Source of the DNA: Pachysolen tannophilus NRRL Y-2460
Lineage: Eukaryota
DNA length: 37,949 bases
Assembly (NCBI GenBank): GCA_001661245.1
Contig: KV454019.1
Span: 1 to 37,949, forward strand
Direction of reading: 5' to 3'
Shown: piece after piece, positions 9,194-31,443 of the stretch
Layout of the letters: each line of letters starts with the position of its first letter
Position numbering within the stretch: position 1 is the first letter of the stretch
Made by a program: the position numbers and the translations under genes
Notes under the pieces: model-generated
Databases searched by the model: none
What the model saw: the letters and a program-made list of their open reading frames with translations, nothing else
Told to the model about the DNA's origin: nothing

Positions 9194-9968
9194 CTATAAA
9201 TTATTTTCCATTGATTGCCTCAAAGCTTCAAATGGTGACTGCTGATAGTTCTTGTCAGTGAAAACTGCGGCAAATCGTTGTTTTTCTATTTGTTCTACTT
9301 TTCTCGCTCCTCTTAACGATTTATGAGGATTTGGCAGATGGTTCAACTGTTTTTTCTCCTGTACGTATCTTGGTCTATCATTACCTGAGCTGTGATTATT
9401 ATTATTATCGACGTTGAAGTTATTGTTTGCTGCTTCAGAAGGTAAGTTATCCAACAAATCTTCCATTTTCGCTCCCAATTGAGCTTTCATTTTTCNNNNN
9501 NNNNNNNNNNNNNNNNNNNNNNNNNNNNNNNNNNNNNNNNNNNNNNNNNNNNNNNNNNNNNNNNNNNNNNNNNNNNNNNNNNNNNNNNNNNNNNNNNNNN
9601 NNNNNNNNNNNNNNNNNNNNNNNNNNNNNNNNNNNNNNNNNNNNNNNNNNNNNNNNNNNNNNNNNNNNNNNNNNNNNNNNNNNNNNNNNNNNNNNNNNNN
9701 NNNNNNNNNNNNNNNNNNNNNNNNNNNNNNNNNNNNNNNNNNNNNNNNNNNNNNNNNNNNNNNNNNNNNNNNNNNNNNNNNNNNNNNNNNNNNNNNNNNN
9801 NNNNNNNNNNNNNNNNNNNNNNNNNNNNNNNNNNNNNNNNNNNNNNNNNNNNNNNNNNNNNNNNNNNNNNNNNTTAGTACCTCTTTCACAAAAATCAAAA
9901 CTTTCCAAAACCTTGAATTTAGAAAACCCAAGAATAAAAAAAAGAAAAGAAAAAAAGAAACATACCAT
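9194..9968 (-). CDS. SLX9: Ribosome biogenesis factor Slx9/FAM207 family. ATG-only exon 1 (9966-9968), middle hidden in the N gap, C-terminal part at 9194-9495
   Basis: C-terminal PNPHK..RGA.K....E..RF..V.....YQ.SPF.ALR..M.N motif. Divergent from TOM20 as in S. cerevisiae. ATG is followed directly by GTATGT. Confidence 0.75.
9496..9873. other. Assembly gap
   Basis: Run of N. Confidence 1.
9874..9965 (-). other. Visible part of the SLX9 intron (3' end lies in the gap)
   Basis: GTATGT donor at 9965-9960 immediately after the ATG. TACTAA at 9879-9874 abuts the gap. Confidence 0.75.
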
Positions 9969-12957: not shown

Positions 12958-13559
12958 NNNNNNNNNNNNNNNNNNNNNNNNNNNNNNNNNNNNNNNNNNN
13001 NNNNNNNNNNNNNNNNNNNNNNNNNNNNNNNNNNNNNNNNNNNNNNNNNNNNNNNNNNNNNNNNNNNNNNNNNNNNNNNNNNNNNNNNNNNNNNNNNNNN
13101 NNNNNNNNNNNNNNNNNNNNNNNNNNNNNNNNNNNNNNNNNNNNNNNNNNNNNNNNNNNNNNNNNNNNNNNNNNNNNNNNNNNNNNNNNNNNNNNNNNNN
13201 NNNNNNNNNNNNNNNNNNNNNNNNNNNNNNNNNNNNNNNNNNNNNNNNNNNNNNNNNNNNNNNNNNNNNNNNNNNNNNNNNNNNNNNNNNNNNNNNNNNN
13301 NNNNNNNNNNNNNNNNNNNNNNNNNNNNNNNNNNNNNNNNNNNNNNNNNNNNNNNNNNNNNNNNNNNNNNNNNNNNNNNNNNNNNNNNNNNNNNNNNNNN
13401 NNNNNNNNNNNNNNNNNNNNNNNNNNNNNNNNNNNNNNNNNNNNNNNNNNNNNNNNNNNNNNNNNNNNNNNNNNNNNNNNNNNNNNNNNNNNNNNNNNNN
13501 NNNNNNNNNNNNNNNNNNNNNNNNNNNNNNNNNNNNNNNNNNNNNNNNNNNNNNNNNNN
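12958..13559. other. Assembly gap
   Basis: Run of N. Confidence 1.
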
Positions 13560-13715
13560 TTTTTTTTTTTGAATTAGTTGTTTACTTTATTGGGGCAAAA
13601 AGAAAAAAAAAGTAAAGAAAAATAAAAATAAGAAATTATTCGGATAATAAATTTAATTGAATAGTATTATAAATATAAAATAAAATCAAACAATAATAAT
13701 CAATTTAAATAAAAC

Positions 13716-14048
13716 ATGTCTTCATCAGTTCCGTACGATCCATATGTTCCATCATCGACTGAAAATGAGCAGCCATCAAGGACTCTGGAAATCCAGCTGC
13801 AAATTGATGATACAGTTGATATAATGAGGGACAATATTAATAAAGTTGCAGAAAGAGGTGAAAGATTAGATTCTATTCAGGATAAAGCTGATAATTTAGC
13901 TGTAAGTGCCCAGGGATTTAGAAGAGGAGCAAATAGGGTTAGAAAACAAATGTGGTGGAAAGATATGAAGATGAGATTATGCATTATAATTGGTATAATT
14001 GTTCTTTTAATTGTTATAATTGTTCCAATTGTTGTACATTTCAGTTGA
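13716..14048 (+). CDS. SNC2: Synaptobrevin v-SNARE Snc1/Snc2, intronless
   Basis: [41 protein letters not shown] and C-terminal TM ending IVPIVVHFS. Confidence 0.97.
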
Positions 14049-14561
14049 AGTTATTGACAAAAGAGAAGTAGAAAGACTTATCGAAAAATTATCTTTCTTT
14101 TTTTTTTTTTTTTTTCTTTTAATGTTGATTTATGTGTATATTTTGTTCTGTGGTGGTTATTTATAACATATTTTTCTTTTTTTTTTGTGTTACGGAAAGA
14201 AAAAAAAAAAGTGTTTACTGTTTGTTTAACGCTTTCGTCATTTCTAATCAAGCTTATCTATGAGATTTTATTTTTTCTTTTTTTTTTTTTTTTTTATTTT
14301 AGTATAATTATATGAAGTCTCAGGCAAAATTATATTATATTTAATGTAGTTTTAGTATTATTTAATTGTGAAGAGTAATTAATCACACTAATTTTTTTTT
14401 TTTTTTTTTTATATCTTTGTATAGAAACATTTCAAAACCTGTTTTGTATTAGAAATAAATATAACACATAAGGGAATCAATACAATGGAAACTTTAATCT
14501 CAACATAACAAAAAATGATGAAAAAAAGTATATATATAATGGAATTGGTAAGAAAACAAAG

Positions 14562-14595
<34 letters not shown>

Positions 14596-14779
14596 AAATA
14601 ATTAATAAAATTAAAAATAGTAAAAGCAAAGTTTTAACAAATCACAACAAAAAAAAAAAAAAGAAAAGTAAAAAAATAAAAAATAAGAAAAAATAGAAAA
14701 AAAAAAAAAAAAATAATGGAAAAGGGTTACTATATATAAAACAACGATTGATCTGCTCTAGAAAAAAAACATATCAACC

Positions 14780-17700
14780 TCAAATTGAAGATTCAAATTC
14801 TGCATTTCGCGAAACTAATTCAACAATACGTCTAATGGCAGGTAAATTGAGGAAACTTGGTATATATGCTTCAACTTTAGTAAATCCTCTTAAATCAACA
14901 TTCCGGAATGGATCATCGAAAACTCCATCACCACTTCCGCCTGTAACATCAAGGAAAAATCCACCTTCTTTATCATCTTCTTTAACTCTTTTAGCGACAG
15001 CAGCTAAAACTCCAGGCGCTATCGGTGTCTCATAATCTGCAACATAGTATTGACTAATTAATTTTTGAACTTGAGAAGGTTTTAATGCATAACAAATTTC
15101 ATAAATTATATCAATATCATCTGGTGTGTTCTTTCTTAATTGTAATAACTTAGCTGCTTGTAACAAATGTACTAAATAGTTTCCACCTTCATTAATAGAA
15201 TGACTTTTACACCATTCTTCTAATCGCGTAACATTGTAGTTTAATTGTAATCCTCTCTTCCAACTCAAAAAGTTTCTTCTCATTATTAAATCATTAAAGC
15301 ATAAGGCATCGACAAATCTTAATAATTCAATGATAACTTCATTCATCACCTCTGGTTCAAAGAAATATGATTTCATGGCCCAGTATACAGAATTAAAGAA
15401 ACTCAAAATATCATCCATTTTATATTGAACACCTTGTGAAAATACTTTTGACAAAAATGGAGATGATTCTGGAGCCATAAATCCAGGTAAGGATTGAGAT
15501 AGAACAACAGCACTGACTGCTTTCTTTTCTAAATCTTTCTCCATTTTTTTCATCCACATATTGTATATGTTATAACTTAAAGATTCAAAATCTTCCTTGA
15601 CGACTGCAACCAATTTTAAGTACTCATCATATTCCGAATCACTCATTTCGTTAGATATATTATCATTAGCAATAATTGTAGATTGTGCATAGCTAACAAA
15701 AGAATAAAGTTCATGGGTATTTGATAACCAAAATGCACCATGAGAAATCACTTCTTCATCCTTTAATGCTGAAACTAAATTCTGAATGACAGATAATACT
15801 TCACCAAGGAAATCTTCACTCTCTTTTGTTAAGCCCAATCTCCACATATCACTCAATACGATAATAACAATTCTTGCTGGAAATAATACTTCTTTTCTAG
15901 TAAGATCTCCGGCAACAGTTGCAGGTGGAATTTTTATTCCTTTCAATAATCCGTCAACAATTTCTTTATGTAAAGATCTAGAATCCCGCAATAACTTCCA
16001 TAATTCATCGTTAATTTGATTAACATTTGAAGTTAAAATATCATCTCTAGAAATTTGCATAACAGAAACTGGTCTTGGGGTAAAACTTTGTATTGGTGAA
16101 CTCCAAGGCAAATTTTGATTGCTTGATGGTGATAATGAATGTCTATTATTAACTTGTTGGTTTCTTGTTGGAGTTGAAAGTACTTTAGCTTGTGGTTGTT
16201 GTTGCTGTAAAGAAATTATGTCTGATTTCAATTGAAGAATAGTTTTGTTTAAGCTATCTTTTTCAGCATCGTATGCCTCCAAGTCCAGTCTAGCTTTATC
16301 TAACAGTTCAACATTACGCTTGACATCATCCTTTAATTGTTCTTGTTCCTTAAGAAGTTCCTCTATTCTTGCTTGTGACGAGCCAAACTCTGATTTGACG
16401 CTGTTTAACTCCTGTGTTAACTGAGTAACTTCTTCCAAATGCTTTTCTGAAGTAGTATTCAACTTTTGATTGAACTCTACATGTTGTTGTTGTAGAATCT
16501 CCTTGTCATTTGAAGATTCATCTAATAAAGCTTTCAATTTAGTGATCTCAGTAACTAAGTTCTTATTATCCTGAATCTTAGAAGTAAGGCTTTGCGTTAA
16601 CTCAATAACTTTATTTTCAAGATTGTACTGGACTTCCTTCATTTTGTTAACAGATTTTGCTTCAACTTTAAGCAGTTTCAATTCTTTTATTGCCAATTTA
16701 CGACGGAGACAGCATTGGACAAATATAGTAGCCTTGATATATTTTCTGAATTCACGCTTACCGAGATACGATCTGCAAGAGCGCTGTATAACTAAAGCAC
16801 CATTTAAATTTCTTCTTTCCATAGTTTCTCTTCTCGTCTTGAGACCACGAATACTACTTTGGAGAATTATAATTGAGTGCAAAGCTAATTGGAAATTAGT
16901 TCTTGCCAAGTATCCTCTTGCCAGAGTTTGAATCATCGTGGCAGCATGTTCTTCAATTTCTCTTTGAATTCTGACTCTGACTAATTTACCCCTGATAACA
17001 GATTGTATACCCATTATTGAATTTCTAATCTCCAAGTATTTTCTACGATGGTAAAGCATTCTCAAATTCTTTTGAATCAAAACAGCGCTTCTGAACAATT
17101 TATCACTTCTCAATTTTTCTAGATGAGCCAACATTCCTGCTTTAAAGAAAATCTTTGTGTTTCCAAGTTGGTATTTTGCTTCTGAATCGATGGAAATTGA
17201 CAAGATTTTATTACATAAACCGGACACCTCTTCCTGAGTTGTTTCACCACTGGCTACTTTTAACCACTCATCTGACGAAACTAATATATGATATCTGTCG
17301 GCAAATTCAACATAGGTCCATCTTGATGGAAAACCAGCACAAGATATTCTGATAGTCTCCAAAACACCACAAGCTCTTAATTGAGATAGCACCATCAATG
17401 GATCAAACTCCCAAGCTTTCTTCTGTTCATTAGGTTTTATACAACGAATATAATGGGCATTTGTAGAATTTATTGTTTTCATCAACTCTACTAATGAATT
17501 TTTGAATATTGAACCCAAGGTTGGCTTCTTATTTATTCCTCTTCCCTGCTTTGCAGTTTGTAACAACTCAGCACTTTTATCAACAGTAGCTAAAATTTCT
17601 TGCAACAATTGATTTGAAGTAGCTTTTAATGTTTCTAAATGTCCATCAGAAACTGTATCTCTGTTTTTTTCTATAAAGCCTTCGTTATCGTAGGTAACAT

Positions 17701-19508
17701 CCAAAGCATAATGAGAAACTGTGAACTTATTGTTTCCGAATCTTGGTTTAGAGAAAACTTTGTTGGTAGGTGGTTTTGCCAAAGTCTGGTACATCTTTTC
17801 TACCCATGACAGGTCATTACCTGATGGCAATCTCGACTCTTCATCTAACAATGCTAGAATACCAACTTTTTGTTCGATTAAATCAATACATGGTTGATTA
17901 TCTGAAAATTCAATAAACGACCATTCTATTTCTTCTTTTATATATTCTTCTTGTTCTAATTTGAAAACATGCAGATTAAATTCTTGTTGTAATTTCTCGT
18001 TAGCATAATTAATACAAAATTGTTCAAATGAATTTTTATCAAAATGCTCAAACCCATAGATATCTAAAACACCAATAAAAGAATTAATTTTTGATTCAAC
18101 TTCTGAAGGACACAAATCTGAATTCACATAATCGACTAACCAATCAAACAAGGCAGAATATATATACTTTGCAACAGAATCTCTAGCTACTAAAGCTTGC
18201 AGGTGATTTAAGTTAGAAACAATTTTTTCTGATCTTGTTATGATTTGTTTTTTAACAATCCATTTACTAAAATCATTAGGATCGATTTCCAAAAGTTCAC
18301 ATGCTTTTACAAGATTTGGATCTTCAGATGAAATATGTGCATCATTTCTTGTTTTAGCAACTGCAATGTTACCTATATGTAACAATGCTGCCAATATTTT
18401 ATATATTTCATATTGTTTATCAGCTTCAATTCCAATTAATGCCAATGCATCACTTGTATCTTTAAATTCCTTTGCATCATCAACTCCTTCAATTTCTGGG
18501 ACACCGCCTTGATTTAAATAATGGAAATCTTCAATTTTTGTTAATCCTAATTTTTCCTTATCTTCATCTTTCATACCTTTAATTATTTGATAAAAAATAT
18601 GATAATTTCTTTCTGTTTGTGGTTGAAAAACTAATCTTGAACGTTCTAGCAAATATGTTCTAACTCTTGCACCGATGATGGAAGGTTCTTTATCAAATAA
18701 GATTTCCAAATATTTACCAAATCTAGAAGAATTATCATTTCTTGTTGTCTTTGCATTACCAAAAGCTTCCATAATTGGATTTGTAGCCAAGATTTGCTTT
18801 TCAGTATCAGACATATCATGATTTGTTGAATCTGCCTCCACAGAAGCAAAAAATCTCATAATATATTTAGCTGAGACAGTTTTACCAGCACCTGATTCAC
18901 CACTAACTATTATAGTTTGATTTTTACCATCTCTTTTCATACATCTATAAGCATCTTCTGCAACAGCGAAAAGATGAGGTTCTAATTCACCACGTCTTTT
19001 ACCTGCATAAGCTTGGATAATATCAGGTGAATATAATTGATCAACTCTTTGGAAAGGATTTGTTGCTATTAACACGATACCAGAATATGTATAAATATTC
19101 AATTGTGAATAACGAATTTTAATGGCGTTTAATACAGCAGGTTCATTAAGATACGATAAACTGGTCAAATCTTCATTTGCTTCTAATATTGGTGGATTTC
19201 TTAATTGTGGCAAATCTTTATTGTTTTCATCTAAGGAATCTGCTTCAACTGTAAATTCTCTACCATCTTCTGCAACTAATCCTATTATATACTTGTTACC
19301 CTCATGTTTATGTGAAGTTACTTCAGTTCCAACCCAACCTTCTTTTTCATCTGGATACCAACAACGACTAATAAGAAAATATTAAGAAACAATTAGTAAA
19401 TCGACCTTAAAAAGAACCTTTATCATCTTGTGATAAAGAAGAAAATTTCTAAAGAAAATAAAAAAAATAAATCACAACTTACGTTCCAACTTCATATGTA
19501 GAGGACAT
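14780..19508 (-). CDS. MYO2: Class V myosin, exons 19508-19483 and 19367-14780 (1537 aa)
   Basis: GESGAGKT, EAFGNAKTTRNDNSSRFGK, IQ repeats, coiled coil and DIL tail. Splicing gives MSSTYEVGTRCWYP, matching Myo2 N-termini and in frame with the long ORF. Confidence 0.97.
19368..19482 (-). other. Spliceosomal intron in MYO2 (115 nt)
   Basis: GTAAGT donor at 19482, TACTAAT branch at 19398-19392, TAG acceptor at 19370-19368. Confidence 0.9.
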
Positions 19509-20275: not shown

Positions 20276-22575
20276 CTAATGGGGTTGTTCCTCTATATCC
20301 ACTTGTCTCTGATCATTTTGAATTAGCAGATAATTGAGTTGTTCATTGAAAAAATCTGATTTTTCTCTTGTGTAATCAGCCAATTTATTTCTATATATCT
20401 TGAGTGATGTTAACATTATTTCTAGTGCATCTGATTTTTCGTAAAAATTTTGTGAATCAATTGTTGGTTCTATTTTGTCAGATGTTGTTATCAGTTGTTC
20501 TATCTTTGTTTGCTGATTATTTATTGATTCTACATCTTTATCTTCTTGTAATTCATCTAAAAGATTAGGTAATGACTGTCTTTGTTCTAATTGAACTTGT
20601 TCAATTTGTGAAAGTCTGTCTTCTGTTTTTACGGGAATTGACGCTTCCAAGAAATTATACCAATATGATAAAATTGATATTAATCTTGAATTTAAAATAT
20701 ATTTTGGTGATAATTTTTCTTGATCAAATTGAATCTCATGAAAAATTTCAGTATCAGATTCTTGAATAGGATTAACAAAATTTTTAATGGGATAATCTTC
20801 ATTTTGTGAGTCTGAAAAATAATTTAATGAACCTAATAAAGTATAAAGAATTTTAAATAATGATAATGTTAATTTTGTGGAATCATTTAAAAATTTAATT
20901 TTTTCAATAAATCTTGTTGTTGTTGTTGTTGTTGCTGCTGCTGTTGTTGTGCCAATAATTCAGATGTGCTTGGCAGTTCTTGATCTTCAACAAAAACAGT
21001 TTGTTCCTCTGTCATTACTTGATCGCCATCATTATCAGTTTTACTAAGTGATTCTTGTTCTTGATCTTGTTGTTCTTCTTCTTTTTTTTCCAAATCTTTA
21101 ATATTTTCCAATAAATTTTTTGGTTGTAATTTTTTCATTAATCTATAATCATCTGCTTCATTCAATATTTCCACTGTTTTATCAATATAATTTATTCTTA
21201 AATTTATAAGTTTCCCCGATGATATTAATCTTAATAATAAATTTTCAACTTCATCAATATTACAATTAAATATCTTTCCTAAATATGATAATTCCAAACA
21301 ATCATAATATTTAATGACTTTTAAAATTGTCTTTAAACGAATAATTGTTTGTAATTCATCCATATGATCAATTAAACTTGAATCAGATAATTTCCCAATT
21401 GTTTGATCCATCAATATTAAATTGTTAAATTTTTTAATATCAACATTTATAAAAGCATAATATAAATCTATATAAGTTTTAATTTCATCAAGTGAAATAA
21501 AACTTTGAAATTCTTTTGATTGGAAAGGATTAATTTCTGATTGACTTAACATATTAGATATTATTAATTTTTTCAAAATATGTAATCTTTTAGAATAATT
21601 ACCAGATTCATCATAATTTTTAAAACTTTCATAAAATTCATTTGAAGCTTTATTATAATAATTTTTTTTCATGTACATTTCACCACCAAATTCTTTAATA
21701 ATACCAATAATTCTTGGATGAGGAACAGCTGAACTTACCAATAAAGTTTTCCTATATAATTTTTGCAGTAAATGAAATTTCGATTCATCACCATTTAATA
21801 ATTGAATTTGTAAAGCTAATAATTCTAACATATATCTTCCTTTTAAAGTTTCTGAATTAGAAGATTCGCAAATTTTTTGTAAAGAAGATAATAATTTTAA
21901 TGCTTCATCATTAAAATTTTGTGATATTAAAAGGTTACATTTTTTCAAATTTGCCTTTAACCATAATCTATCATTATTTATATTTTTAAAATTTTCAATT
22001 ATACCTTTTAAAGTCATTTCAATAAATTTATTTAAAAAATTTAAATTTGAATTATCATAATGATCTAATATTTTATTAATTGATTCTTCAGCATAAAAAT
22101 AATTATTTAATTTTGGTATAATTTCAAATAATAAATTATATTTTTGTAAAAAATTATTAAAATCACCTAATTGAAAATAAATTTTTAATAATTGTTTTAA
22201 AGATTTAAAACAATATTTAAAACGATATTCTGAATTAATATCATTTCTATCTTGAATTTTTAAAATTTTAGAAAATTGTTTAATTGCCAATTGTAAATCT
22301 TCTTCCTTCAGAGCTTTGGCACTAAAATATTCATTATCCAAATCTTCATGAGAAATTTCGTCATCATTATTTTTTTTTACATCATCATCATCATCATCAT
22401 CATCACCAGTACGAGTACCACTAGCTCTAGCTCTAGCTTCAGCTCCAGCTTCAATTCCTGCGTTATTACCGTTGTGCTCATCATCCATTAGATCATCATC
22501 ATCATCCTCATACTCAAAAGAGTAATCGTCCTCGTCCTCGGACATTTGCATAAAATCATCATCTTCCTCCGACAT
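20276..22575 (-). CDS. CSN2: COP9 signalosome subunit 2-like PCI protein. Frame 0 runs 22575-20887 (562 aa) and an overlapping -1 frame continues to 20276 (about 766 aa if joined)
   Basis: Acidic N-terminus, FKSLKQL.K, Y.EESIN.ILD, NDRLW.K.NLK, SAVPHP.I.GIIKE.GG.M.M, F.ESFKNYDESG, SEINPF.S.E. The -1 frame is stop-free from 20959 to 20279. Confidence 0.8.
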
Positions 22576-23476: not shown

Positions 23477-23883
23477 NNNNNNNNNNNNNNNNNNNNNNNN
23501 NNNNNNNNNNNNNNNNNNNNNNNNNNNNNNNNNNNNNNNNNNNNNNNNNNNNNNNNNNNNNNNNNNNNNNNNNNNNNNNNNNNNNNNNNNNNNNNNNNNN
23601 NNNNNNNNNNNNNNNNNNNNNNNNNNNNNNNNNNNNNNNNNNNNNNNNNNNNNNNNNNNNNNNNNNNNNNNNNNNNNNNNNNNNNNNNNNNNNNNNNNNN
23701 NNNNNNNNNNNNNNNNNNNNNNNNNNNNNNNNNNNNNNNNNNNNNNNNNNNNNNNNNNNNNNNNNNNNNNNNNNNNNNNNNNNNNNNNNNNNNNNNNNNN
23801 NNNNNNNNNNNNNNNNNNNNNNNNNNNNNNNNNNNNNNNNNNNNNNNNNNNNNNNNNNNNNNNNNNNNNNNNNNNNNNNNNNN
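23477..23883. other. Assembly gap
   Basis: Run of N. Confidence 1.
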
Positions 23884-23933: not shown

Positions 23934-26018
23934 ATGTCATATCAACAAAGAGCCATAAACAATAGTTCTAATAATAATAATAGCTCGGCAGCTGCGTCGA
24001 GGTTAAGATTAAACGATTTACTTGATAGCGTTAGAAAAGAATTTGATAGTTTATCCAATGAAACTTCAATTTATAAGAATCATCAAAATGAGGTGGATTT
24101 AAAATTTAACCAACAAAACCAGGAGTTGGCAAATATAAGAAATACTGTATATGAATTAGAAATGGCTCATAGGAAGATGAAGGAAGCTTATGAGGAGGAG
24201 ATTTTGAGGTTGAAGCAAGAGGTTGAAAATAGAGATCGATTGATTGCTCAACAACAACAACAGTTGATTGAAGGACCTCAAAGTACAAACAATGCAAACT
24301 CCAATAATGGTGTTAATAATAATAATAACAATAATAATAAGTACTATCCTCCAACTCCTCAACAATTGCCTCCTCCTCAACTAAGTCAACAACAACAACA
24401 GCTGCTGCAACAACAACTGCAACAACAACAACACCAACTGCAACAACTGCAACAACTGCAGCAGCAGCAGCAGGCTAATAACCAATTACCACCGCTTCCT
24501 CTTTCTAGAACCTCGCCAAATGGAGACGTTCAAGTCCAACCACCGTTCAATAATAATAATCTTCCGAAAGTTGAAGGTTCTGGTCAACTGACTGCCCCTC
24601 AGTTGCCTCCTCCACAGCAGTTACCACCACACCTGGGTGCACAGCAACAACAACAACCGCAACAGCAGCAACAGCCAATCCATCCAGGTGGGCATGGTGC
24701 TGGTGCTGGTGCTGGTACTGGTACTGGTGCTTCAAGTCAGCAACCACCGGCACCAGAACTGTCGCAGCAGCTGCTGCTGCAACTGGCCTCATCAGAGAGA
24801 CCTTCTCGCAGAGACGATCAAGGTTTGTCTCCATCTTCCCAGGCACTTTCTTTAAGATCTCAGCACGATAAAGAAATTCCTCCTTTCTTGCAGGATTTGG
24901 ATTCTGCTCCTGTTCCTTCACAATTTAAGAAACAAGCCAATGACTATTATGTGTTGTTTAATCCAGAACTTCCAAAGACAATTGATATTGATTTAATACA
25001 TTCATTGGATCATTCTTCAGTTGTATGTTGTGTTAGATTTTCTAAAGATGGTCATTTTTTGGCAACAGGTTGTAATAAAGTTACTCAAGTTTTTGGTGTT
25101 GAAACTGGTGAGTTGGTTGCTAGGTTATCTGATGATTCAGCATCACAGACAACCACCAATAGCGATGGTACCACTACAACGAACTATCAAACCGATTCTG
25201 GTGATTTATATATAAGATCTGTTTGTTTCTCACCGGATGGGAAATATTTAGCCACCGGTGCAGAAGATAAATTAATTAGAATTTGGGACTTATCAACAAG
25301 AACTATAGTTAAAGTTTTGAAAGGACATGAACAAGATATTTATTCTTTGGATTTCTTTCCAGATGGTTCGAAATTGGTTAGTGGTTCTGGTGATAGAACA
25401 GTTCGTATTTGGGATTTGGTTTCTTCTCAATGTGCTTTAACCTTATCAATAGAAGATGGTGTCACTACTGTTGCTGTATCACCTGATGGTAAACTCGTTG
25501 CTGCAGGTTCATTGGATAGAACTGTAAGAGTTTGGGATGCTTCTACTGGATTCTTGGTGGAAAGATTAGATCCTGAAAATGAAAATGGTAATGGGCATAA
25601 GGATTCAGTTTATTCTGTTACTTTTACCCATGATGGTAGAGAAATTGCTTCGGGTTCCTTAGATAGAACTGTTAAATTATGGGCATTGAACAAATTGACT
25701 AACTCACCATCATCACAAGAAACTTCAGCAACTGCAAGACCATCATCGACTTGTGAAGTCACATATGTTGGTCATAAAGATTTTGTACTTAGTGTCTGTA
25801 CTACTCCAGATAATGAATTCATCTTATCTGGTTCTAAAGATAGAGGTGTTATTATTTGGGATAAGAAAGTTGGTACTCCATTGTTGATGCTTCAAGGGCA
25901 TAGAAACAGTGTAATTTCGGTTAGTGTTAGTGCTTTAGTCGATAATGGTAATAGTGGTTATTTTGCAACCGGTAGTGGTGATTGTAAGGCAAGAATTTGG
26001 AAATGGACTAGAATTTAA
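23934..26018 (+). CDS. TUP1: Transcriptional corepressor Tup1
   Basis: RLNDLLD..R.EF and YELE.AHRKMK..YEEEI helix, Q-rich linker, WD40 repeats ([44 protein letters not shown]). Confidence 0.98.
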
Positions 26019-27042: not shown

Positions 27043-29457
27043 ATGGAAATGCGTTTGATGTTCTTGACTTTTAGAAGTGTTCCTACAAAAATTTTCAGGG
27101 TTTTAATTATACTGGTAATTGTTAGTACTATATCCTACTTATCCTTTGTGGATCGTAATATACTGTTGAGAAATGGTAATTTACACTTATCATCTGAGGG
27201 TAAAACTTTTGGAAATATTATAGGGTTAAACACTTCTATTGATGAGAAAGAATCTAGAGTTAGAACTTTTCTTCCTTCTAATTTGTACCCTCAAGAATTA
27301 GTACCGCATGTTCAACAGGCGAAAAATTTCGGAAAGTTTGATCCAAGACTTTTACCAGCGCTTTATATTGATATTATTAATGATGCACTTTTATCATCTG
27401 GTGAACTCTTTGACGATTTTAAATTACCATTTAATTGGAATATGCTTTTAGATTTCACAACGAAATTGATGGAAACTTCTTTAGTGGATAAATTTGTTAA
27501 AACTGAAGCCAGTTGTGAATCATTTAGATCTGAAATAGGATATAAGGATAAGGATAATTTTGCCTGTAAAGAGTATACAAAAAACTCAAAAGATAATATT
27601 TATAATTTGAATTTTGAATTATACGCAAACTGTTTAACTTATTTCAAAAGTGATGCATTAAGAAAAATATATGCATATATACATGGTTTGACTTCTTTCC
27701 AAATTCCAGATAAAATTGTATTTTTAGGTATTGTTGGAGGAGGAAATGGTTCTTTAGTTTTGCCTACATATAAAATAGAAGATAATAAGCAAAATTTGAA
27801 AGTTAACAAAAATATTGATGATAGCAAATCATTGGCAATTGATAAGTTGTCATTGGAATTTTTAAATAGAAAATTAAAAAAAAACATAAATCAGAAGTAC
27901 CAACTTTTGTTTGACGGAATATCAGTTTATAAAACTGTCAAAGAGTTTAATAATATTATATTGGATTTTTCAATAAATGAAAAATTTCTTATGAGTAATG
28001 CAAAAACAAAACAGGATTTGCATAAGCTTCATGCACCAGATTCTGAACTCTTCTTGTGGAATTCAAAAGAAGAACTAAATAAGATTAAAAAGGAAATGGA
28101 GTTGGATAAGAATAATATTTCAGTTTTGAAAAAATTATCAATTTCTTTAGAAACATCTTTATTACCAAACTTTAGGGAAAAAAAATATTTTGGAGAAGCA
28201 TACATTAGTTCAAGAAAGGTAGAGAGTGGTCACTTTGATTGGAGATTTTTTGATTTATTTACTCAAGATTCTGCTCCCTTACATCAAGCTACCATTCACA
28301 GAATGGCAAGATCTTGGTTTAAACTATGTCAAGACAGTGATGTACCTACATGGCTTAATCATGGTTCATTAATTGGTTGGTACTGGAATGGTTACAACTT
28401 ACCTTACGATAACGACATAGATGTTCAGCTTCCAATTCAGTCTTTATATAAATTGGCTAAAAATTTGAACAATTCTTTAATATTTGACGTTACCAATGTT
28501 AAAGATTATGTTAATGATGATTTAAAAATCGATAACATGGCAGAAATGGGATTTAGGAGTTATTATTTAGATATTAATCCAGGTTTTGTAACTCGAGATA
28601 AATTACAAAATAAACACAACTTAATTGATGCTAGATTCATTGATGTTAGAACCGGATTATACATTGATATTACAGCATTGGCAGATTTTAATTATCATAC
28701 CAATAAAGATATTGATTTACTGTATAAAATTATGGATAAGTTTGATAAACTGGATAGTTCTAGATTCATGCAAAATTTAAATTATGATTTATTTTACAAT
28801 GGTTTAAAAGAAAAGACAGATTTAGTTGGTAAATCCAAAAAACAATCAAAGGAAAACAAAAAACTGAAAGCCGATGAAGAATTTCAAAAAATTAAAGAGA
28901 ATTTCTTGGTAACAGCAAATGAATCACCAGAAATGGCCACTCTGATTTTTCAAAATTTAGTACATTGTCGTAATTACCATTTTTACAATATTAGTGAATT
29001 ATTACCATTGATCCCAATTTATTTTGAAAACACTTTAAGTTATATACCTTCAAATTGGTTAAGAAATTTAATAATTGAATATGATTCAAGTGTTTTAACC
29101 ACTGAATCTTTCAGAAGATATAGATTTTTCCGTGAATTAAATATATGGGTTAATAAGGATAGATGCCAATATAACTTTGAACAAAGTGACGCAGAAAATG
29201 CTCAAACATGTCTAGAAAAAGATGTTGTCGCTAGAAAAGAATTTAATAGAGTCAAAGAGTATGTGCGATCAAATAATAAGTTGCTAGAAAAAATTCTTCC
29301 ATTTCCCTCATTAAATGATATTAAAGACATTAAGTATACCCTTTCTGCTCAATACTTTCAAGAAGACATAATGAACAGTATATTAAATGAGTTTGATGAA
29401 TGTTTGCTAAAACCAGAACCTTGGATAACTAGAAACCTATTTCTATCGGATATTTAG
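27043..29457 (+). CDS. MNN4: Mnn4/Mnn14/Pno1-like LicD-family mannosylphosphorylation protein (type II membrane)
   Basis: N-terminal TM, FDPRL, LPF.W, HFDWRFF, WL.HGSL.GWYWNG..LP.D.DIDVQ and IDARFID..TGLYIDIT. The exact paralogue is uncertain. Confidence 0.8.
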   Translation: MEMRLMFLTFRSVPTKIFRVLIILVIVSTISYLSFVDRNILLRNGNLHLSSEGKTFGNIIGLNTSIDEKESRVRTFLPSNLYPQELVPHVQQAKNFGKFDPRLLPALYIDIINDALLSSGELFDDFKLPFNWNMLLDFTTKLMETSLVDKFVKTEASCESFRSEIGYKDKDNFACKEYTKNSKDNIYNLNFELYANCLTYFKSDALRKIYAYIHGLTSFQIPDKIVFLGIVGGGNGSLVLPTYKIEDNKQNLKVNKNIDDSKSLAIDKLSLEFLNRKLKKNINQKYQLLFDGISVYKTVKEFNNIILDFSINEKFLMSNAKTKQDLHKLHAPDSELFLWNSKEELNKIKKEMELDKNNISVLKKLSISLETSLLPNFREKKYFGEAYISSRKVESGHFDWRFFDLFTQDSAPLHQATIHRMARSWFKLCQDSDVPTWLNHGSLIGWYWNGYNLPYDNDIDVQLPIQSLYKLAKNLNNSLIFDVTNVKDYVNDDLKIDNMAEMGFRSYYLDINPGFVTRDKLQNKHNLIDARFIDVRTGLYIDITALADFNYHTNKDIDLLYKIMDKFDKLDSSRFMQNLNYDLFYNGLKEKTDLVGKSKKQSKENKKLKADEEFQKIKENFLVTANESPEMATLIFQNLVHCRNYHFYNISELLPLIPIYFENTLSYIPSNWLRNLIIEYDSSVLTTESFRRYRFFRELNIWVNKDRCQYNFEQSDAENAQTCLEKDVVARKEFNRVKEYVRSNNKLLEKILPFPSLNDIKDIKYTLSAQYFQEDIMNSILNEFDECLLKPEPWITRNLFLSDI

Positions 29458-29534: not shown

Positions 29535-29804
29535 NNNNNNNNNNNNNNNNNNNNNNNNNNNNNNNNNNNNNNNNNNNNNNNNNNNNNNNNNNNNNNNNNN
29601 NNNNNNNNNNNNNNNNNNNNNNNNNNNNNNNNNNNNNNNNNNNNNNNNNNNNNNNNNNNNNNNNNNNNNNNNNNNNNNNNNNNNNNNNNNNNNNNNNNNN
29701 NNNNNNNNNNNNNNNNNNNNNNNNNNNNNNNNNNNNNNNNNNNNNNNNNNNNNNNNNNNNNNNNNNNNNNNNNNNNNNNNNNNNNNNNNNNNNNNNNNNN
29801 NNNN
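29535..29804. other. Assembly gap flanked by (AT)n microsatellites
   Basis: Run of N with (AT)n on both sides. Confidence 1.
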
Positions 29805-30273: not shown

Positions 30274-31443
30274 ATGAACAGTTCAGGACTTGATATATTA
30301 ATTGAAGAGAAAGAACATGATTTATATAATCTGGAAGAGGAGGTGAGAGATACGGAGAAATTTACAGTGCCACCTGAAAATATTTGTTTACTTCCTCCTT
30401 TACCATCATCTGTTTCTTTAATTTTACAAACAGGTGTGAATCTGGCAACAGATGGAAATAGAGCAGCAGATGGTGATCTAAAACAAGTTTCCTCATCGAG
30501 CACAACAGTTCCTACGCCGCTGTCTAGTCCGATTTTGGGTTCCACTGTTAATCAATCGTTTAAGAACTTGGGTAATAATGGAAAATCTATTTCTTCTTCC
30601 CAGATCTTATTGGCGAATTCGTATAATATTGAAGATGATGATAGAGGTAATGAGAATACTGAAGCTGGTGATATGCTGGCTAGGGGTACTTCGAAAAATA
30701 ATATTTTGAAAAGAATCAAATCAGGTATTCGGAAAATTTCATCACCGTTGCAGTCTAATTTCCCATTAGAAGATTCTCCACAACCGTATGGGAAATCAGA
30801 TCTCTCACCGTGTTTGCATGATTCTGATGGAGAAACAGATGAACAACAACAACAGCAACAACAGCAGCTGCTGCAGCTGCTGCAGCTGCAAGGATTTTCT
30901 AGAAAAACTTTTACGCCCAAACATATTTCTACATTTTCCAATACGTCGAATTCATCATCTGTTTCATTATCTCTGAGCCCTTTTCACATTTCAAGACATT
31001 CACCTAATACTAGTATAAGTAACACTAGAAGTTTAGACGCCACTAGTCGTTCTGGGTATCTATTACCAACATCGCCTATTATCACGGTTAATGAGAAAGG
31101 CAATACAAACATGGGCGATAAATCAAATGGATCAGATTATGATTATGGCTATTGCAATTCAAACGATTTTACTGGATTGGATTTTGCTCGAGGTAGTGAC
31201 AATTTATTTAGCATAGACCATCTCAAGACAAAAGAGGATCAGGAGTTGTATCTACAACTGTTGAAACAACAGTTTCAAGATGAAATCAATGCCTTTGAAG
31301 TCACAGAATTCCATCTAAGTAATTCGGGTTGGTATTCAGATAGAGATTTACTGGAAATAAAGAAAAAAAGAGAAACCACTGTAAGATTTTGGAAAGAAAA
31401 TATTGAAAGATTGGAAATTTTAATTGCTGGAAATCAAAAATAA
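30274..31443 (+). CDS. Uncharacterised Ser/Pro-rich protein with a Q/CTG tract and short helical C-terminal domain
   Basis: 389-codon ORF from ATG 30274. No family recognised. Confidence 0.75.
   Translation: MNSSGLDILIEEKEHDLYNLEEEVRDTEKFTVPPENICLLPPLPSSVSLILQTGVNLATDGNRAADGDLKQVSSSSTTVPTPLSSPILGSTVNQSFKNLGNNGKSISSSQILLANSYNIEDDDRGNENTEAGDMLARGTSKNNILKRIKSGIRKISSPLQSNFPLEDSPQPYGKSDLSPCLHDSDGETDEQQQQQQQQLLQLLQLQGFSRKTFTPKHISTFSNTSNSSSVSLSLSPFHISRHSPNTSISNTRSLDATSRSGYLLPTSPIITVNEKGNTNMGDKSNGSDYDYGYCNSNDFTGLDFARGSDNLFSIDHLKTKEDQELYLQLLKQQFQDEINAFEVTEFHLSNSGWYSDRDLLEIKKKRETTVRFWKENIERLEILIAGNQK

Follow-up and report, generated by a model that had tools for sequence, protein, structure and literature searches.

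Alanine at CUG in a 38-kb scaffold of Pachysolen tannophilus NRRL Y-2460, with a side observation on where its CTG codons lie

Which amino acid does the codon CTG specify in the DNA studied here, and how far can this DNA by itself provide the answer? The question is raised by a small gene at 13716..14048 (+ strand), an ATG-to-stop reading frame of 110 aa with two CTG codons, encoding a v-SNARE of the Snc1/2 type (synaptobrevin). The frame matches the Pfam family Synaptobrevin (PF00957) with an E value of 7.5e-33 and the S. cerevisiae protein deposited in PDB as 'Synaptobrevin homolog 1' (9cru_J) with an E value of 2.9e-36. The codons TCA AGG ACT CTG GAA ATC CAG CTG CAA ATT GAT GAT were found at 13776-13811 with both CTGs in frame, just as a preliminary description of this DNA had reported. 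They are codon 24 (13785..13787, + strand) and codon 28 (13797..13799, + strand), and each would be alanine under translation table 26. The same description had quoted the corresponding stretch of S. cerevisiae Snc1, and it had done so correctly: 9cru_J and 3b5n_A give SRTAELQAEIDD opposite SRT[CTG]EIQ[CTG]QIDD.

A homologue search with the Snc protein yielded 2501 proteins at E <=1e-5, of which the best 119 were aligned, the window's own records being excluded (by the window we mean the whole stretch of DNA analysed, 37,949 bp). Among these best 119 of 2501 homologues, the column of codon 24 consists of A 88, Q 27, T 2, L 1 and N 1, and the column of codon 28 of A 101, Q 14, S 3 and N 1. The contention that both CTGs stand opposite alanine, and not opposite leucine or serine, is thus borne out, Snc1 itself having A at both sites. 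VAMP2 (rat/human-type, 2kog_A) has Q opposite codon 24 and A opposite codon 28. The sole L in column 24 belongs to P0122, the protein of the closest relative, which is 86% identical and derives from a Logan assembly.

How often would such columns be met by codons of undisputed meaning? Over the four alignments that we examined (Snc and three further proteins, see below), Ala-majority columns were found at 73 of 115 ordinary Ala codons, at 3 of 285 Leu codons, at 20 of 199 Ser codons and at 2 of 107 Gln codons. Since alanine majorities are so rare for ordinary Leu codons, two such columns out of two in Snc would be very unlikely for a leucine codon. The Snc pair is a true alanine signal, beyond chance. 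It is also the best case available, picked by the preliminary description, and in this sense a fortunate sample: the columns of codons 24 and 28 are the only ones with an alanine majority among the 13 usable CTG columns that were tallied.

Next, we examined what the window is and what else it contains. It is a whole scaffold of Pachysolen tannophilus NRRL Y-2460 with 28.7% G+C. Of its ATG-to-stop ORFs, 18 reach 100 aa or more; they comprise 7607 codons, 55 of which are CTG. Pfam matches reveal a budding-yeast gene set: Snc, Myo2, Tup1, LicD/Mnn4, Std1/Mth1, a PCI protein, an eIF2B subunit, Pex22, Rad17, Tom20, GCV-H and the 20-kDa subunit of complex I. The scaffold is interrupted by four runs of N, at 9496-9873 (378 bases), 12958-13559 (602), 23477-23883 (407) and 29535-29804 (270); the run at 12958-13559 stops 157 bases upstream of the Snc start codon. 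A tRNA scan of the 37,949-bp window detected no tRNA genes. Six public sequencing runs from three studies contain the stretch, five of which carry half or more of its words, and there is no RNA run among the six. For five runs, from two studies, coverage of the words sampled from 13600-19000 is 93% or more, and some of these runs may be the source of the assembly.

The best database match to the Myo2 ORF is 'hypothetical protein PACTADRAFT_19036 [Pachysolen tannophilus NRRL Y-2460]' (P0001, 99% identical). Compared with the ORF translated by the standard code, it departs at seven residues, which are exactly the seven CTG codons, and all seven are A. The same is true of the stored Snc protein (P0121, A at both CTGs), of the stored LicD protein (P0241, A at six of six) and of the stored CSN2 protein (P0335, 99% identical, A at the two CTGs that it covers, aa 89 and 270). 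Taken together, the four database proteins have A at 17 of the 17 CTGs covered, and CTG codons are the only sites at which they differ from the standard translation. Public annotation of the scaffold, then, already uses table 26. The A residues in stored proteins are annotation and no independent proof of decoding. The translation tool lists table 26 under the name 'Pachysolen tannophilus nuclei: CTG=A', which confirms its earlier mention as the CUG=Ala code of Pachysolen. Riley et al. (PNAS, 2016) is reportedly a source for this nuclear code as well. A literature search combining Codetta with Pachysolen found no paper.

To see where the other CTG codons lie, their reading frames have to be introduced. 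The class V myosin (Myo2) ORF at 14780..18940 (- strand, 1386 aa) contains seven CTGs, at aa 247, 323, 377, 673, 756, 879 and 885. Among the 119 aligned homologues, most of these columns are occupied by Q, E, K or D. The residues of mammalian myosin Va at codons 247, 323, 377, 673 and 756 are L, M, D, Y and K, respectively. Codon 323 (17972-17974, - strand), in the motif EFN-Q-HVFKLEQEEY, is CTG where 119 of 119 class V myosin homologues, the closest relative included, have Gln and where mammalian myosin Va has Met. Either glutamine has truly been replaced by alanine at a site that fungi otherwise keep invariant, or the assembly is wrong here, CAG and CTG being one base apart. The database Myo2 protein has 1537 aa compared with 1386 aa in the ORF, that is, 151 extra N-terminal residues, from which it follows that the 5' part of the gene lies outside the ORF (window position 18941 onward, - strand), in another exon or frame.

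The ORF of COP9 signalosome subunit 2 (CSN2) at 20887..22575 (- strand) matches human CSN2 with an E value of 2.6e-67 and has three CTGs, at aa 89, 270 and 534. Codons 270 (21766-21768, - strand) and 89 (22309-22311, - strand) stand at Leu-type columns, and at either site the human protein has Leu. If CUG is Ala, both are Leu-to-Ala replacements, one base from TTG. For CSN2, the annotated model does not agree with the open frame: the database protein P0335, of 428 aa, omits 42 in-frame residues of the ORF (Gly/Ala/Asp-rich, following aa 35) and stops at aa 469, while the ORF ends at aa 562.

The LicD/Mnn4-like ORF at 27043..29457 (+ strand, PF04991) contains six CTGs, at aa 24, 41, 560, 570, 608 and 634. 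Its CTG columns are mainly gaps among 93 homologues, and column 24 lies within a hydrophobic L/I/V segment. The Tup1-like ORF at 23934..26018 (+ strand, with Tup_N and WD40 matches) has 13 CTGs, all of them in Gln/Pro-rich low-complexity sequence (aa 157-284), and a 389-aa ORF at 30274..31443 (+ strand), matching no Pfam family, has 12, of which five fall in a poly-Gln run at aa 199-205. The codons are clustered in these poly-Gln/Pro runs, at 24402-24458 and 24759-24785 (+ strand) in Tup1 and at 30868-30888 (+ strand) in the 389-aa ORF, where five CTGs occur within seven codons. Table 26 turns the tracts of both proteins into Gln/Ala-rich ones, not Gln/Leu-rich ones.

For the column tally, 18 of the 55 CTGs in ORFs were used (Myo2 7, Snc 2, LicD 6, CSN2 3). 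The remaining 37 lie outside it, in Tup1 (13) and in the 389-aa ORF (12), where Gln-rich low-complexity sequence surrounds most of them, and in a 366-aa ORF, Pex22, Rad17, eIF2B and Std1. Homologues were aligned in numbers of 119 for Myo2, 119 for Snc, 93 for LicD and 149 for CSN2, in each case without the window's own records; the statistics additionally exclude the rows of the closest relative and four P. tannophilus paralogues. A column was considered usable at an occupancy of at least 50%. Thirteen CTG columns qualify, and four of the six in the LicD alignment, with an occupancy below 50%, are unusable. Apart from the two alanine columns of Snc, a leucine majority was found in four, namely CSN2-270 (116/149), CSN2-89 (41/113), Myo2-673 (L 50, A 38 of 119) and LicD-24 in its hydrophobic segment. 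Three columns have a glutamine majority (Myo2-323 with 119/119, Myo2-377 and Myo2-756), two a lysine majority (Myo2-247 and LicD-41), one a glutamate majority (Myo2-879) and one an aspartate majority (Myo2-885). None of the 13 has a serine majority.

Comparison with ordinary codons in the same alignments revealed that CTG columns differ from those of every codon class compared. Leucine majorities occur at 4 of 13 CTG columns against 187 of 285 for ordinary Leu codons (Fisher P 0.016), alanine majorities at 2 of 13 against 73 of 115 for Ala codons (P 0.0017), serine majorities at 0 of 13 against 97 of 199 for Ser codons (P 0.0003) and glutamine majorities at 3 of 13 against 53 of 107 for Gln codons (P 0.08). 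Columns with at least 80% Ala number 1 of 13 for CTG and 53 of 115 for ordinary Ala codons (P 0.004). When the 13 columns were scored by Codetta-like sums of log-odds, Gln came out highest (+2.8), followed by Ala (-2.8), Leu (-17.5) and Ser (-18.4); the lead of Gln over Ala rests on one invariant column, Myo2-323. An empirical model based on majority residues did not separate the candidates (Q -39.1, K -39.2, A -39.84, L -39.88).

The window alone, therefore, tells us that CTG is no ordinary leucine or serine codon here, but it does not single out alanine, since 13 columns do not suffice and the outcome varies with the model used. The lesson for the method is that column tallies of a 38-kb sample cannot call the reassignment of a sense codon: two well-chosen Snc codons gave the right answer, whereas the other 11 usable CTG columns do not. 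Database proteins can bring a distortion of their own. Three Myo2 homologues from Logan assemblies, P0109, P0080 and P0108, show 'L' 36, 29 and 21 times, respectively, at columns with at least 60% Ser. They are most likely from CUG-Ser yeasts translated with the standard code, and proteins of this kind can distort column tallies.

What settles the decoding is published work on this very strain. According to the accessible part of the report by Muhlhausen et al. (Genome Res, 2016; PMC4937558), CUG=Ala in P. tannophilus NRRL Y-2460 was established by tRNA identity and LC-MS/MS. The Pachysolen tRNA(CAG) clusters with alanine tRNAs, has the discriminator base A73 and a G3:U70 pair, and is without the extended variable loop. 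The LC-MS/MS data covered 1433 of 16,824 CUG positions; fragment ions fully support 907 of them, with Ala at 97.2%. Eight CUG positions were found with Ala plus another residue and 18 with another residue; differences at AUG were similar in number, and CUG was judged to be as unambiguous as AUG (PMC4937558, same part). The alanine clade is composed of Pachysolen, Nakazawaea and Peterozyma in the accessible text of Krassowski et al. (2018, PMC5951914), in agreement with the preliminary description, which had named the latter two as relatives sharing the code. An earlier study (Muhlhausen and Kollmar, 2014, PMC4986446), based on counts in 26 cytoskeletal and motor proteins, had, in the part available, found highly conserved Leu positions to be free of Pachysolen CUGs. 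It wrongly gave Pachysolen the Ser code from such conserved-position counts, and the same authors later replaced Ser by Ala using mass spectrometry (PMC4937558). As far as these sources show, the wrong call of 2014 means that small positional samples can mislead.

Against this background the competing readings can be weighed. If the standard code applied, CTG would be leucine and the Snc sites true Ala-to-Leu replacements. This has a very small chance of being correct, even though Leu holds the majority at 4 of 13 CTG columns, human CSN2 has it at both 89 and 270, and the empirical majority model puts it level with Ala. A column with at least 80% Leu is found at none of the 13 usable CTGs but at 120 of the 285 ordinary Leu codons (binomial P 0.0008), the nearest to this cut-off being CSN2-270 with 78% Leu; for Myo2 alone the counts are 0 of 7 and 108 of 143. 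Leucine is also nearly absent from the Snc columns (1/119 and 0/119), lies far below Ala in the Codetta-like sum, and is contradicted by the mass spectra and tRNA data published for the same strain (PMC4937558, accessible part). Serine, inserted at CUG as in the Candida clade (table 12), was the 2014 assignment for Pachysolen, as the accessible text of PMC4986446 has it, and Ser codons are frequent partners of Ala columns (the 20 of 199 given above). That CTG is read as Ser here is nevertheless very improbable: not one of 13 CTG columns reaches even 50% Ser, the Codetta-like sum for Ser is the lowest of the four, the Snc columns contain Ser in 0/119 and 3/119, and the authors of the serine assignment themselves moved to Ala by mass spectrometry (PMC4937558, in the part at hand).

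Glutamine is the reading that the window's own tally would put forward. It has the top Codetta-like score, a majority at 3 of 13 CTG columns with the invariant Myo2-323 among them, and the largest share of the close relative's residues at CTG positions (4/14), and CTGs are scattered in the poly-Gln runs of Tup1 and the 389-aa ORF. Its lead, however, depends on that single Myo2 column. Moreover, CAG becomes CTG by a change of one base, so that glutamine columns are the expected birthplace of new CTGs under any reading, which counts against Gln as the decoded residue. In the Snc columns A outnumbers Q by 88 to 27 and by 101 to 14, and mass spectrometry gave Ala at 97.2% (PMC4937558, same part). 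We rejected CUG=Gln because of the published peptide data and the single-step origin of CTG from CAG; its probability is vanishingly small. Ambiguous decoding, finally, would mean that CUG is read mainly as Ala but that some codons, for example those at the leucine columns of CSN2, receive Leu often enough to matter for function. The presence of CTGs at such Leu-type columns and the published CUG positions with Ala plus another residue (8) or with another residue (18) speak for it; the similar number of differences at AUG, the verdict that CUG is as unambiguous as AUG, and a tRNA(CAG) without the long variable arm speak against it, all as given in the accessible part of PMC4937558. We consider its chance very small.

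Alanine is left as the reading in best accord with the evidence, and it is nearly certain that the window is nuclear DNA of P. tannophilus NRRL Y-2460 in which CUG is read as alanine (NCBI table 26). The published tRNA(CAG) retains G3:U70 and A73, the marks by which alanyl-tRNA synthetase knows its substrates, and is without the long variable arm of leucine and serine tRNAs; a tRNA of this description would be charged with alanine, and alanine would be inserted at CUG. The Snc CTGs would then be Ala codons restoring the conserved motif SRTAE(I/L)QA, and all 55 in-ORF CTGs of the window would be read as A. We observed the codons themselves, the alanine columns of Snc, the organism, the A that database proteins have at CTG and a depletion of this codon at conserved leucine columns; the tRNA identity and the peptide evidence come from the literature (PMC4937558, as far as accessible). 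The broader claim of the preliminary description, that this genome uses CUG=Ala and that every CTG is to be read as A, is accordingly supported by the identity of the organism and by the literature, not by the window alone. In practice, every 'L' encoded by CTG in translations of the window's ORFs is A, and the genome needs table 26.

The system is the known Pachysolen nuclear code (table 26; PMC4937558, accessible part), with the same organism, strain and reassignment and with nothing different in kind. The window comes from Pachysolen itself, a member of the CUG-Ala clade together with Nakazawaea and Peterozyma (PMC5951914, accessible text). In other budding yeasts, CUG-Ser1 (Candida, Debaryomyces; table 12) and CUG-Ser2 (Ascoidea, Saccharomycopsis), the same codon has been reassigned, likewise through a tRNA with a CAG anticodon taken from another amino-acid family. 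Those codes insert Ser whereas Pachysolen inserts Ala, and serine majorities are found at none of the 13 CTG columns of the window. CUG=Ala in this window is therefore already known, the strain's reassignment, its tRNA and the proteomic proof having been published in 2016, and the only new element is a side observation on where the CTG codons sit.

The closest relative in the alignments was looked at separately. Its proteins P0002 (Myo2), P0122 (Snc) and P0242 (LicD), which are 77%, 86% and 42% identical to those of the window, are from one assembly and appear to be encoded on a syntenic contig of a close relative. At 14 aligned CTG positions this relative has four Q, three L, two each of E, K and T, one I and no A. 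Its frequency of A, 0 of 14 at these positions as against 65 of 108 at the GCN Ala codons of the window, differs strongly (P 9e-6). The three L may be CTG codons read by the standard code. The relative also shows 'L' at Snc-24, where A is found in 88/119, and at Myo2-59, where the others have A 104 and S 14. Among the eight Pachysolen alanine sites at which it has 'L', the signature of CUG=Ala is seen at one (Myo2-59), the others being hydrophobic or gappy columns. These sequences contain hints, too weak to support a claim, that CUG may be Ala in the relative too, the standard code having been used for its translation.

Where, then, do the CTGs of the window come from? For the most part they do not lie at ancestral alanine sites; homologues have Gln, Leu or charged residues there, which suggests that the CUGs are young. 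New CTGs would arise from CAG (Gln) or TTG (Leu) by single-base change and, under CUG=Ala, would be expected mainly at former Gln or Leu sites that tolerate Ala. The Gln- and Leu-majority CTG columns, Gln as the second residue in both Snc columns, the CTGs in poly-Gln runs and the residues of the closest relative at the 14 aligned positions, Gln being commonest and Ala absent, all fit such an origin, which would explain why most CTGs stand at columns other than alanine. Many CTGs of the window, we infer, appear young and born from CAG or TTG. That Pachysolen CUGs as a whole are young, with fast turnover and mainly former CAG or TTG codons, even at Myo2 Q323 or CSN2 L270, is possible though rather doubtful.

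The observation is in mild tension with the statement, in the accessible part of the paper on the Pachysolen code (PMC4937558), that CUGs of this species are placed 'mainly at conserved alanine positions', two alanine columns out of 13 being a small sample. If true genome-wide, the pattern seen here would qualify that statement, and it would offer a direct view of a captured codon repopulating a genome.
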